Assembly (NCBI RefSeq): GCF_030013595.1
Contig: NZ_CP122768.1
Direction: 5' to 3' (one strand)
Origin: Escherichia coli
Lineage (GTDB): Bacteria; Pseudomonadota; Gammaproteobacteria; Enterobacterales; Enterobacteriaceae
DNA length: 64,000 nt
Part shown: positions 12,133 to 61,377 of the stretch, piece by piece
How the letters are laid out: the number at the start of each line of letters is the position of its first letter
How positions within the stretch are numbered: the stretch's first letter is position 1
Made by a program: the position numbers and the translations under genes
Notes under the pieces: model-generated
What the model saw: only the letters and a program-made list of their open reading frames with translations
What the model was told of the DNA's origin: nothing
Database searches by the model: none

Positions 12133-12889
12133 AGCCGAACCGGATGCCGGAATGCTGGCGGAAAAAGAGTGGCAGGCGGCGGCTCAGGGTAATAGCGGAC
12201 CGGATGTTTCGCTTCTGCGAAGTTTACTCGGTGCTGATGAACAGGCTGCCGCCGCGCTGCTGTTGACGCAGAGAAAAAACGGTACGTCGATGTCTTTAAC
12301 CGCGTTGAGCATGGGGGATGAACGGGCGTTGCACTGGCTGCGCTATCTCATGGCTCATGGGTTTGAGGAAGCTGTATTGCTGGAGACGGCGGCAGATCTG
12401 CGCTTTGCGCCGGAATTTGTCGCTCGCCATATTGCCGAATGGCAGTACCAGAATCCGCTGGATCTGATAATTACCGGCTGCCAAAGCAGCGAAGGGCAGA
12501 ATGGGCAAACGCCATTTTTGCTGGCGGAAATGCTGGGCTGGCCCTGCTTCACCCAGGTGGAGCGTTTTACTCTCGACGCGCCGTTTATCACCCTTGAACA
12601 GCGTACTGAAAACGGGCTGCGCTGTTGCCGGGTTCGCTTGCCTGCGGTGATTGCCGTGCGTCAGTGCGGTGAAGTGGCCTTGCCAGTACCGGGAATGCGT
12701 CAGCGAATGGCGGCGGGGAAAGCAGAAATTATCCGTAAAACTGTTGCTGCCGAATCGCCAGCGATGCAGTGTCGGCAACTGGCAAGAGCAGAGCAACAAC
12801 GCGGAGCGACGCTGATTGATGGGCAAACGGTAGCAGAAAAAGCGCAAAAGCTATGGCAGGACTATTTACGCCAAAGGATGCAGCCATGA
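12110..12889 (+). CDS. ygcR: Electron transfer flavoprotein beta-subunit-like (FixA-like)
   Basis: Start at ATG 12110 (MNILLAFKAEPD...); ETF-beta N-terminus; overlaps ygcQ start. Confidence 0.8.
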   Translation: MNILLAFKAEPDAGMLAEKEWQAAAQGNSGPDVSLLRSLLGADEQAAAALLLTQRKNGTSMSLTALSMGDERALHWLRYLMAHGFEEAVLLETAADLRFAPEFVARHIAEWQYQNPLDLIITGCQSSEGQNGQTPFLLAEMLGWPCFTQVERFTLDAPFITLEQRTENGLRCCRVRLPAVIAVRQCGEVALPVPGMRQRMAAGKAEIIRKTVAAESPAMQCRQLARAEQQRGATLIDGQTVAEKAQKLWQDYLRQRMQP

Positions 12890-21085: not shown

Positions 21086-21103
21086 ATATTGCCGGATAAA
21101 TTA

Positions 21104-21140
21104 AACGCCTCTGTCAGAAATGATGGGGGCGTTTTTATTT
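21104..21140 (+). terminator. Probable cysH terminator (aaacgcc...ggcgttttt atttt)
   Basis: GC stem with T-run 20-55 nt after cysH stop; loop is long so call is tentative. Confidence 0.4.
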
Positions 21141-21251
21141 TGCGAGCAGCATTCCTGATTTTAAACGTGAACGCCGCTGGAAGAATTATCAGGTATAGAA
21201 TGGCGTTGGGTGCTTGAGGCTGTCTGGCGTTAAGCATTCGCGAGGTTCCAG

Positions 21252-21356
21252 ATGGACAAAAGCCCCAGGCGATATTTCTATCAACCTGAGGCCAGCGTTC
21301 GAACCCAAACAATTCGAATGTTAGTCTCTTCTTTGCAGGGAGGCAAGGCATGCTGA
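21252..21356 (+). CDS. Mok-like leader ORF overlapping the hok start (candidate translational-coupling frame)
   Basis: 34-codon [37 protein letters not shown] ending in TGA that overlaps the hok ATG; architecture typical of hok/sok loci. Confidence 0.3.
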
Positions 21357-21502
21357 CAAAATATGCCCTTGTGGCAATCATAGTGCTGTGTTTTACAGTA
21401 CTGGGATTCACGCTGATGGTAGGCGACTCGTTGTGTGAGTTGAGTATCAGAGAACGTGGTATGGAGTTTAAGGCAGTTCTCGCTTACGAATCGAAGAAGT
21501 AG
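21350..21502 (+). CDS. Hok/Gef-family type I toxin (50 aa)
   Basis: [50 protein letters not shown]: single TM helix, conserved SLCE and C-terminal AxxAYE motif of Hok family; SD gcagggagg upstream; resembles the HokE-type sequence as I recall it. Confidence 0.75.
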
Positions 21503-21513
21503 CCACCACGCGG

Positions 21514-21523
21514 GGGTAAAACC
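21514..21523. repeat. Left copy of 10-bp target-site duplication (gggtaaaacc) of IS186
   Basis: Identical 10-mer at 22862..22871 immediately outside the other IS end. Confidence 0.8.
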
Positions 21524-22861
21524 CATAAGCGCTAACTTAAGGGTTGAACCATCTGAAGAATGCGACGCCTCGGTGCCTCGTTAAGACGATGCCTCGCGTT
21601 CTTCAATTGCGTTTTGTAGGCTGTCAGGGATACTGTCCCACGAATGGCCACCTGTAAGCTCCAGATGACCATTTTTGTTATTCTCCACAACGAGTTAGTT
21701 CTTCTTTTCGGATCCGGCACTTCTGGGGGGAAATCCAGCGATGGCTGGATTATGTCGTCAATTAAAAATGCGGCGAGTAGATTAGCAAATATCCACGCTT
21801 TCGCGAGTTCAGGTTCCTTTGCACGCAAAGCATCCAGGTGCAGCAAACTTTTGAGCCGCTTAAAAGCCAGTTCAATTTGCCATCGCAGACGGTAACAATC
21901 AGCCACTTGCTCTGCTGAATATTCATCTTCCGGTAATGATGTTAGCAATAGCACATGGCCCGCTGCTTCCAGCGTTTCCGCCTGAACTACTCGTCCTTTT
22001 CGACGATTCTCGCTGAGCAGTCGGGTTTTACTGATTAATGCTTTTTCGGGAGGAAGTGATACGGCAATGAGACGTGCCGGAAAGGGAGCTCCGGCTTTTT
22101 TATTACCTGAATTGCCTATCATTACAGTGGTTTCACCGTTCTTACCGCAATCCAGCCCGCGCAGAAAACCCATCATGTCAAAGCGCATTCCTTCTGCAGT
22201 TAACCAGCGCAATCCTCGCCAGTGAACCCGGACGATATAATCAGCTTCTCCAAAAGCAAGTGAGCGGATACATTCGGGACGCGAACCGAATCCCCGGTCA
22301 GCAATGCGTATCTCGTCTGCCGTTTGCGCAAATCGGTCCAGCCGTTCAGCGTCTCTGCTGTCGGTTAGCTCAAAATCAGTGAACTGACAGGTATGAGGAT
22401 CATATCCCATATGTAGTCGCCATTCAGCGCTGCCGCCCCCGGGCGCACTGATTGCTGTTCCATCGACAAGACGCAATCTCTTTCCGCTTGTACAACCCGT
22501 AACTGCGGCGCGTACAGCAAGTGTTTGTGCGGCAAGTATGCCAAACCAGTCGGCGGCATTCCGCAGCCGCTTCAGGAGAGCCACGTCAGATAATGTTGCA
22601 ACGTCATGGAGCTGAGCCCATGCAGTGACTTCACGTAATGACATCCCCCCGGGGCCGTAAGCCAGCCCCAGACGTAGCAGAGTTGCAGCATCACGAATTT
22701 CGCGGCGGCGGGTTAGAGCCCCGGCATTACGTGCCGAAGTATCCAGTTCTTCGGGCTTACCAATATGGGCCAGAATTGCTGACCAGTTATCGTGAGAGTA
22801 ATTCATCGGCACGTTAAATCATATCAGGCGTAATACCACAACCCTTAAGTTAGCGCTTATG
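21524..22861 (-). mobile_element. IS186 (IS4 family), complete 1338-bp copy with 23-bp perfect terminal inverted repeats
   Basis: IRL cataagcgctaacttaagggttg at 21524..21546 and its exact reverse complement at 22839..22861; single transposase ORF inside; length 1338 bp matches IS186. Confidence 0.92.
21532..22812 (-). CDS. insL: IS186 transposase (longest ORF; the conventional annotation may start at the internal Met MSLREV at complement 22644)
   Basis: ORF MPMNYSHDNWSAILAHIGKPEELDTSARNAG... recognised as IS186/IS421 transposase. Confidence 0.9.
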   Translation of the reverse strand: MPMNYSHDNWSAILAHIGKPEELDTSARNAGALTRRREIRDAATLLRLGLAYGPGGMSLREVTAWAQLHDVATLSDVALLKRLRNAADWFGILAAQTLAVRAAVTGCTSGKRLRLVDGTAISAPGGGSAEWRLHMGYDPHTCQFTDFELTDSRDAERLDRFAQTADEIRIADRGFGSRPECIRSLAFGEADYIVRVHWRGLRWLTAEGMRFDMMGFLRGLDCGKNGETTVMIGNSGNKKAGAPFPARLIAVSLPPEKALISKTRLLSENRRKGRVVQAETLEAAGHVLLLTSLPEDEYSAEQVADCYRLRWQIELAFKRLKSLLHLDALRAKEPELAKAWIFANLLAAFLIDDIIQPSLDFPPEVPDPKRRTNSLWRITKMVIWSLQVAIRGTVSLTAYKTQLKNARHRLNEAPRRRILQMVQPLS

Positions 22862-22871
22862 GGGTAAAACC
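22862..22871. repeat. Right copy of 10-bp target-site duplication (gggtaaaacc) of IS186
   Basis: Matches 21514..21523. Confidence 0.8.
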
Positions 22872-22977
22872 CCGCGTATTGAATTGTTAAAGTTTGGCCT
22901 CCTGCACCCCTTTTTTATACTCTGTTTCTGGTGGCATTGATTTCCTGCAGGCAAGGGAGTAATCATTTTCAAACCCA

Positions 22978-24015
22978 TCAAGACGCCTTCGCCAGCTCCT
23001 TCACCAGCGGTAGCATTATCCGCATAACATCACGGCAGCGACGTTCTATTCTTCCTGGAAGTGCCTTATCAATATGTTGTTGATTATCCAGTCTTACGTC
23101 ATGCCAGCTATTTCCCGCAGGGAATGCGGCTGTTTTTGCGCGTTGCTGATAACCATCTTTATTCCCAAGATTCCAGTTTGTTGCTTCTACCGAAAGTACG
23201 GCAATACCGGCTTTGTCGAAAACTTCGGCGTCATTACAACAGCCAGTACCCTTCGGATAATTTTTATTCAAACCCGGATTGGTCGTTGCGGCAATTCCAT
23301 GACTACGCGCAATTGCCAGCGCCCTGTCGCGCGTTAATTTCCTTACTGCTTCAGGGGTTTTTACACCGCTGTTGAAATACAATTTATCGCCAACAATTAA
23401 GTTATCGAGATTAATCACCAGCAGCGTATTTTTCTTTTCGGTGTCACTCATCCGCTTGAGTAAATTCTCAGCGCCTAATTTTCCTTCCTCTTCGCCGCTG
23501 GTCGCCACAAATCGAATACCATACTCGGTAGGCGTATTTTTCAGGCGTTCTGCCAGTTCCAGCATGACACCTAAACCTGCGGCGTTATCATCTATTCCTT
23601 GTAACGTCAGTCCGCCGAGATTGGCATCGGCGTCAGCATCGCTCAGCGGAGCGTAAGTATCCAGATGCGCCATAATGATGATCTGCTGCGGCGCTTTGCC
23701 TTCATGAGCGGCAATCACCGTACTTCCCGTCACGTTATGCCAGCTCTTGCGATTATCGCGGGCGGTATAAATATACCGACTATTAAATGTCCGAATATCA
23801 CTGCGATAACCCATTTGCTGAAACTGCTGGCGAATATAATCGGCAGATAACATTTCTGCAGGAGTTCCGGTCATGCGTCCCGGAAAGAAAGTAGCAATAT
23901 GTCGTGCCTGAGTATTAGCAAAATCGCCAGGTTTAGATGACGAGGCGTGTACGGGGAGAATAAAGCATACGCCGAGCGCCAGGGCAGCGGTACGGTGGCG
24001 CAATGCGGAAAACAT
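22978..24015 (-). CDS. iap: Alkaline phosphatase isozyme conversion aminopeptidase
   Basis: 345-aa ORF with signal peptide MFSALRHRTAALALGVCFILPVHA and M28-peptidase-like motifs; position beside cysD. Confidence 0.88.
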   Translation of the reverse strand: MFSALRHRTAALALGVCFILPVHASSSKPGDFANTQARHIATFFPGRMTGTPAEMLSADYIRQQFQQMGYRSDIRTFNSRYIYTARDNRKSWHNVTGSTVIAAHEGKAPQQIIIMAHLDTYAPLSDADADANLGGLTLQGIDDNAAGLGVMLELAERLKNTPTEYGIRFVATSGEEEGKLGAENLLKRMSDTEKKNTLLVINLDNLIVGDKLYFNSGVKTPEAVRKLTRDRALAIARSHGIAATTNPGLNKNYPKGTGCCNDAEVFDKAGIAVLSVEATNWNLGNKDGYQQRAKTAAFPAGNSWHDVRLDNQQHIDKALPGRIERRCRDVMRIMLPLVKELAKAS

Positions 24016-60914: not shown

Positions 60915-61377
60915 CGTTTTACTCTGTGTTGGCAATAGCATGATGGGCGATGATGGCGCAGGCCCGCTACTGGCGGAAAAGTGCGCCGCCGCGCCGAAAG
61001 GTCACTGGGTGGTGATTGACGGCGGTAGTGCACCGGAAAACGACATTGTCGCTATTCGCGAACTGCGCCCGACACGACTGCTGATTGTCGACGCCACGGA
61101 TATGGGGCTAAACCCCGGCGAGATCCGCATCATCGATCCGGATGATATCGCCGAGATGTTTATGATGACTACCCATAACATGCCGTTGAACTACCTTATC
61201 GACCAGTTAAAAGAAGACATTGGCGAAGTGATTTTCCTCGGCATCCAGCCGGATATCGTCGGCTTTTACTACCCGATGACCCAGCCGATTAAAGATGCGG
61301 TAGAAACCGTTTATCAACGACTGGAAGGCTGGGAAGGGAATGGCGGATTCGCGCAGTTAGCGGTGGAAGAAGAGTAG
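60907..61377 (+). CDS. hycI: Hydrogenase 3 maturation endopeptidase
   Basis: 156-aa [25 protein letters not shown]... Confidence 0.92.
   Translation: MTDVLLCVGNSMMGDDGAGPLLAEKCAAAPKGHWVVIDGGSAPENDIVAIRELRPTRLLIVDATDMGLNPGEIRIIDPDDIAEMFMMTTHNMPLNYLIDQLKEDIGEVIFLGIQPDIVGFYYPMTQPIKDAVETVYQRLEGWEGNGGFAQLAVEEE

Follow-up and report, generated by a model that had tools for sequence, protein, structure and literature searches.

IS186 in the post-stop hairpin of hokX separates the toxin gene from the fbi end of its mRNA in a cas-less hokX-iap arrangement of Escherichia coli

In the window, the 64,000-nucleotide stretch of DNA analyzed here, an IS186 element sits immediately behind an intact hok toxin gene. 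We are confident of an explanation in which IS186 transposed into the hokX hairpin, cut off the fbi element and cost the locus its function as a module. In this mechanism, a single IS186 (IS4 family, with a DDE transposase) would have jumped directly into a G/C-rich hairpin 6 nt past the hokX stop codon, where staggered cuts 10 bp apart and centered on the hairpin loop would produce the duplication GG-TAAAA-CC plus one flanking G. Transcripts of hok would then end inside IS186, making the closed, stable and translationally silent full-length form impossible. No reservoir of activatable mRNA would build up, so that the locus would no longer work as a hok/sok module, and the residual hok transcripts would be expected to stay under Sok control.

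The genes in this region are ordered cysJ-cysI-cysH, hok, IS186, iap (convergent) and cysD-cysN-cysC. The toxin open reading frame (21350-21502, plus strand, 50 amino acids) is intact and matches the Pfam family HOK_GEF (PF01848) over 42 of 42 profile positions (E = 3.1e-11); its DNA is identical to the annotated Hok/Gef gene of strain HCP5S3_I2, and its product shares 78% identity (39/50) with K-12 HokE and 37% with HokC. Upstream, the hok mRNA leader and sok region (21208-21365, plus strand) match Rfam RF01794 ‘sok’ over its full length with 112 bits (gathering score 59). This region contains the 5' tac element (about 21208-21221, plus strand, placed by the fold of the reconstructed mRNA) and a mok-like reading frame of 34 codons (21252-21356, plus strand), whose TGA stop overlaps the hok ATG (ATGCTGA). 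Because the K-12 sokX gene (b4701), which lies beside cysH, maps to 21252-21310 on the minus strand with 59 of 59 nucleotides identical, the SokX antisense RNA gene is placed there and the locus is, as judged from its sequence, hokX/sokX between cysH and iap. A hok gene in the cysH-iap intergenic region has already been called ‘hokX’ and was recognized first in E. coli B (PMC7232551), and a bioRxiv Hok survey (10.1101/2025.08.07.668861) makes no mention of IS186, cysH or hokX. The insertion left the toxin reading frame, the mok-like leader frame, the promoter region and the SokX gene untouched. K-12 itself keeps sokX and the hok leader and is devoid of the hokX reading frame (positions 12221-12578 of its locus, L009, correspond to 21086-21352 of the window). 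Its homology to the window extends to the last base of the hokX ATG (21352); the cas3 upstream region begins there, in what reads as a clean replacement boundary.

The element spans 21524-22861 on the minus strand and was annotated by PGAP as ‘IS4-like element IS421 family’. As the earlier note had stated, it is 1338 bp long between perfect 23-bp inverted repeats: one on the hok side, at the 3' end of the transposase gene (21524-21546, plus strand, CATAAGCGCTAACTTAAGGGTTG), and its exact reverse complement at the 5' end of that gene (22839-22861, plus strand). A single DDE transposase is encoded (Pfam DDE_Tnp_1, E = 2.4e-26), in a minus-strand reading frame (21532-22812; 426 amino acids from GTG or 424 from ATG) that is convergent with hok.

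Both flanks of the element carry the same 10-bp target-site duplication, GGGTAAAACC (left copy 21514-21523, right copy 22862-22871), so the reported duplication is indeed intact, and the element does start 21 nt past the stop codon that ends at 21502. A repeat finder returned an exact direct repeat of 12 nt (GGGGTAAAACCC), because the C...G termini of IS186 create a 1-nt boundary ambiguity on each side. Removing the element together with one duplication copy yields the empty site ACGCGGGGGTAAAACCCCGCGT, that is GGGGG-TAAAA-CCCC, and the reconstructed site folds as a hairpin, in agreement with the proposed GGGGG-N5-CCCC palindromic target. This hairpin, ACGCGGGG-GUAAAA-CCCCGCGU, has an 8-bp stem and a 6-nt loop and starts 6 nt after the hokX stop codon. 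Its 5' arm and loop remain beside hok (21508-21523, plus strand, ACGCGGGG GUAAAACC, assigned from the fold of the reconstructed mRNA), and the rest of its 3' arm, CCGCGU (22872-22877, plus strand), now lies 1348 bp from the partner arm. The same hairpin is kept in IS-free hokX loci, with one G fewer in B2-like strains.

IS186 has entered equivalent hairpins behind other hok genes. The statement in the earlier note that K-12 hokC and hokE carry IS186 just downstream proved correct: the duplications are GGATCACTCC at hokC (IS186A, 22 nt after the stop codon) and GGAGTAATCC at hokE (IS186B, 21 nt after the stop codon), cases that go back to Pedersen & Gerdes 1999, cited in PMC7232551. These loci resemble the window in the 21-22 nt spacing, in the 10-bp central GG-N6-CC of a GCGGGG-N6-CCCCGC target, and in the combination of an intact toxin frame with a separated fbi. 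At hokC the element is convergent, as in the window, whereas at hokE it has the opposite orientation; both are different loci from the window’s hokX beside cysH. The proposal of a recurrent hotspot thereby gained support, and two further cases extend it. In EcPF16 (locus L007, 1010-3989), hokE carries a convergent IS186 with the duplication GGAGCAATCC, and since its orientation is opposite to that of K-12 IS186B, the insertion is independent of the K-12 event; an IS150 lies immediately upstream of this hokE. On the 81-kb plasmid NZ_CP151167.1 (locus L010, 2363-3879), a convergent IS186 with the duplication GGAGAGATCC follows a hok gene that is annotated ‘HokD’ and lies among phage antirepressor genes; its target hairpin reads GGCGGGG-N6-CCCCGCC.

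Thus, five independently occupied hok hairpins (hokX, hokC, hokE in two orientations and the plasmid hok) all have the form (G)CGGGG-N6-CCCCG(C), and in each the duplication is the central GG-N6-CC, so that the cuts made by IS186 evidently lie symmetrically on either side of the loop. The geometry of an approximately 10-bp duplication is common to hokX in the window, 7CC and ET490, K-12 hokC, the two hokE alleles and the plasmid hok. IS186 prefers GGGG-N-CCCC targets. It is also said, in work by SaiSree from 2001 (cited in PMC3045373 and PMC11251521), to insert recurrently and in either orientation at a short G-run/C-run target in the lon promoter; those insertions disrupt a promoter, whereas the one in the window interrupts an RNA hairpin in the 3' UTR of a type I toxin message. 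The window holds three GGGG-N4-7-CCCC sites, the hokX site included, which is close to the chance expectation of 2.4. The other two, at 4622-4636 and 61104-61116, are unoccupied; one lies in a CRISPR array and one in a coding region. GC-specific targeting by IS186, including at this hokX boundary, has been described (PMC3903273). The simplest account of the hotspot, from the sequences compared, would be that the GC-specific preference of IS186 meets a hairpin conserved in this hok subfamily.

Another reason for the recurrence of IS186 behind hok genes would be that the disabling of chromosomal hok toxins is selected for, over and above target preference. Several hok loci have been hit independently, hokE both ways round, and IS186 occupies a junction of the hokX or hokE type, in the window’s orientation, in at least 839 genomes (839 matches to the hokX-IS186 left junction or its hokE look-alike at ≥80% coverage; all population counts given here are among 5426 complete E. 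coli genomes). The toxin reading frames themselves, too, are spared. Yet the hairpin fits the GGGG-N-CCCC pattern, and such sites are rare (three in 64 kb), so that preference alone predicts recurrence. Moreover, most genomes with the locus keep an IS-free hokX (1106 have the empty hokX-iap arrangement, for instance), and many carriers of IS186 at this place are clonal laboratory derivatives of B and C. We therefore consider selection an unlikely addition to target preference. A broader proposal, which we regard as doubtful to a similar degree, is that the post-stop hairpin of hokC, hokE and hokX might be a genome-wide landing pad through which IS186 systematically disables hok genes and, at hokX, seeds the loss of type I-E CRISPR-Cas. 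Of roughly 8400 IS186 places in complete E. coli genomes, 839, or at least about 10%, are at a hokX- or hokE-type hairpin; 268 genomes have the deletion derivative at hokX, and in the window the hairpin is occupied even though cas-E is already gone. If true, the proposal would quantitatively link a structural element of toxin mRNAs, the target preference of an insertion sequence and the loss of an immune system.

The position of the element relative to the 3' end of the hok mRNA bears directly on the fate of the module. In hok of plasmid R1, end-pairing between tac and fbi stabilizes the closed, untranslatable full-length mRNA (PMC9841398). We reconstructed the IS-free hokX mRNA as 362 nt (21208-21523 joined to 22872-22917) and computed its minimum-energy fold, in which the ends pair over 12 bp: nucleotides 1-6 and 9-14 (tac) with nucleotides 341-354 (fbi), 5' GGGUGC..GAGGCU with 3' GGCCUC..GCACCC. 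The post-stop hairpin forms in the same fold. The fbi element GCCUCCUGCACCC and a T-run end the hokX module (22896-22917, plus strand). The fbi itself (22896-22909) lies 24 nt beyond the hairpin, and IS186 shifts it by 1348 bp. Separated from hok by the element, fbi is no longer available in the window for end-pairing with tac within one transcript. A search with RNAduplex for a substitute of fbi, pairing tac with the first 587 nt of IS186, found none better than chance (best duplex -25.2 kcal/mol, against a mean of -25.3 for shuffled sequences). With fbi cut off and no better-than-chance substitute in the element, the locus is therefore a disrupted member of the hok/sok family. The earlier note had held that the insertion splits a 3' hairpin that controls the folding of hok mRNA. 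The hairpin is split; the published controller of the fold, however, is tac/fbi rather than this hairpin (PMC9841398).

Read in the hok direction, IS186 contains a terminator-like site at 22076-22095. At hokC (gef), the IS186 behind the gene is thought to disrupt fbi, and the mRNA ends about 200 bp inside the element (PMC3562002). From the displaced fbi, the lack of a better-than-chance tac complement in IS186, the terminator-like site and the hokC/gef literature, we infer a loss of the stable-mRNA mode, which would amount to functional inactivation of the module rather than deregulation of the toxin. The K-12 hok loci and E. coli B hokX have been described as inactivated by insertion elements (PMC7232551), and for gef with IS186 in the same orientation, transcription was reported to continue and the antisense RNA to keep its control (PMC3562002). 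What is called ‘inactivated’ may hence be a locus that has lost its stable-mRNA mode and is not silent.

We find it improbable that the insertion instead raises Hok expression, with an fbi-less mRNA that would be constitutively open and translatable. Such an outcome would follow from the R1 model, in which translation is activated once the 3' end is removed (PMC9841398), and would agree with the fold of the interrupted transcript, which is devoid of tac-fbi pairing. Yet SokX and its target region are intact, and Sok targets the open form (PMC9841398); this strain and hundreds of other carriers of the allele are viable; and such alleles are treated as inactivated in the literature (PMC7232551).

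A close relative preserves the site before insertion. When we searched the reconstructed empty site (IS186 and one duplication copy removed) in the 5426 complete genomes, it was identical at 753 of 753 positions in strain HCP5S3_I2. In a 40-kb comparison, this genome follows the window colinearly, with 99.93-99.97% identity over 36.6 kb; IS186 is their sole structural difference in the region, and the alignment blocks on its two sides overlap by exactly the repeated 12 nt. The check named in the earlier note, a palindromic empty site in an IS-free relative, thus found an exact match. The intact duplication, together with this exact empty site in a near-identical relative, supports the note’s claim of simple transposition in situ. 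Two other origins are ruled out. Recombination between two IS186 copies does not apply to the window, in which both copies of the duplication are present. An assembly artefact or chance repeat does not fit the exact empty site in a near-identical genome or the 597 genomes with the same left junction.

One other complete genome, 7CC, has the window-type right junction (IS186, duplication, hokX 3' end, iap). Its sequence in this region diverges from that of the window by 1.5%, and a SNP lies 53 nt left of the element; the 60 nt that follow the element on the right match the window exactly. The insertions in the window and 7CC are probably independent. That the hokX::IS186 allele was imported by homologous recombination from a carrier E. 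coli (7CC-like or cas-E1 ‘D-type’) is suggested by 328 cas+ genomes and 7CC, which have IS186 at this very position with the same orientation and duplication, by the exact match of the 60 nt right of the element in 7CC and by the frequency of recombination in E. coli, but is highly improbable: both flanks keep the 99.93-99.97% identity to the IS-free relative as far as the duplication, 7CC has its 1.5% overall difference and the SNP 53 nt left of the element, flanks of the ET490 type show several differences in the first 40 nt right of the element, and the two crossovers that import requires would both have to fall no more than a few tens of bases from IS186.

The window belongs to a larger set of hokX::IS186 alleles. 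The whole 2.5-kb region was matched at ≥80% coverage in 596 genomes, and these matches resolve into about 597 of 5426 genomes with IS186 at the hokX site (328 + 268 + 1). In 328 genomes the intact duplication, identical to that in the window, is followed by cas3. In 268 genomes of the BL21/REL606/C type, a CRISPR spacer (‘gggtttttcccc...’) stands to the right of the element and the duplication is missing, unlike in the window, which keeps both copies; the single window-type genome, with intact duplication, hokX 3' end and iap, is 7CC. The spacer flank and the missing duplication point to an IS186-associated deletion of cas-E in B, BL21 and C, and recombination between two IS186 copies is the explanation that applies to the B/BL21 allele. 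In BL21(DE3) (locus L002, 3625-5258), the left junction is as in the window, and ‘gggtttttccccaccgttcagg’ stands on the right, ahead of CRISPR repeats.

In the window, the hokX module ends at about 22917 and is followed by the iap stop codon at 22978, with none of the cas-E/CRISPR2.1 island in between. The cas+ and cas-less arrangements are homologous up to the end of this module (22896-22917). Within 22918-22977, homology to cas+ genomes resumes at about 22964, which leaves roughly 46 nt specific to the cas-less arrangement. A CRISPR array at 4323-4716, in the ygcE-queE region, consists of type I-E repeats with a 61-nt period (about 5.5-6.5 units). With no cas-E between iap and cysH, this array is orphaned, at least locally; its content differs between the window and the otherwise near-identical HCP5S3_I2.

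The hokX::IS186 site and its consequence are already known, and the finding is correct and ordinary. Almendros et al. 2014 (PMC3903273) described the hok/sok module, IS186 at the GC-rich IG2-IG3 boundary and the IS-mediated removal of cas-E. Their arrangements D-G, as well as E. coli B hokX (PMC7232551), are identical to the window in left junction and orientation. Their hokX::IS186 alleles, however, occur in cas-E1 strains (PMC3903273), whereas the window is cas-less and CRISPR2.1-less. What is unusual in the window is IS186 in such a background with both duplication copies, a rare combination of known parts that neither overturns nor extends current understanding. For annotation, the locus should be recorded as an IS186-disrupted hokX/sokX, and its toxin reading frame should not be assumed to belong to a working module. 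For the target rule, it provides a clean and fully reconstructible case in which the 10 bp at the center of GCGGGG-N6-CCCCGC are duplicated. For CRISPR-Cas, it concerns the site that forms the left anchor of the cas-E deletion in E. coli B, BL21 and C.

The IS186 in the window differs by one base from the copies in K-12 (IS186A), BL21 and 7CC. It has a run of six G at 21725-21730 where those copies have seven and measure 1339 bp, which accounts for its length of 1338 bp. The resulting frameshift swaps the last 9 residues of the 370-amino-acid reference transposase for a 63-amino-acid extension into the inverted repeat; save for this frameshifted C-terminus, the protein is identical to InsL of the WP_001300563 type. 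A G6 copy of this kind occurs in 145 of 2720 IS186-bearing records. Because resequenced MG1655 is among them, the window’s G6 may be a homopolymer miscall, or it may reflect recurrent slippage. The frameshift is irrelevant to the past insertion; the copy may have changed since or may carry a homopolymer assembly error. The hokX IS186 of the cas+ strain ET490 (locus L006, 2813-4150) is also 1338 bp long, from C5 instead of C6 near position 1123, and is annotated as frameshifted.
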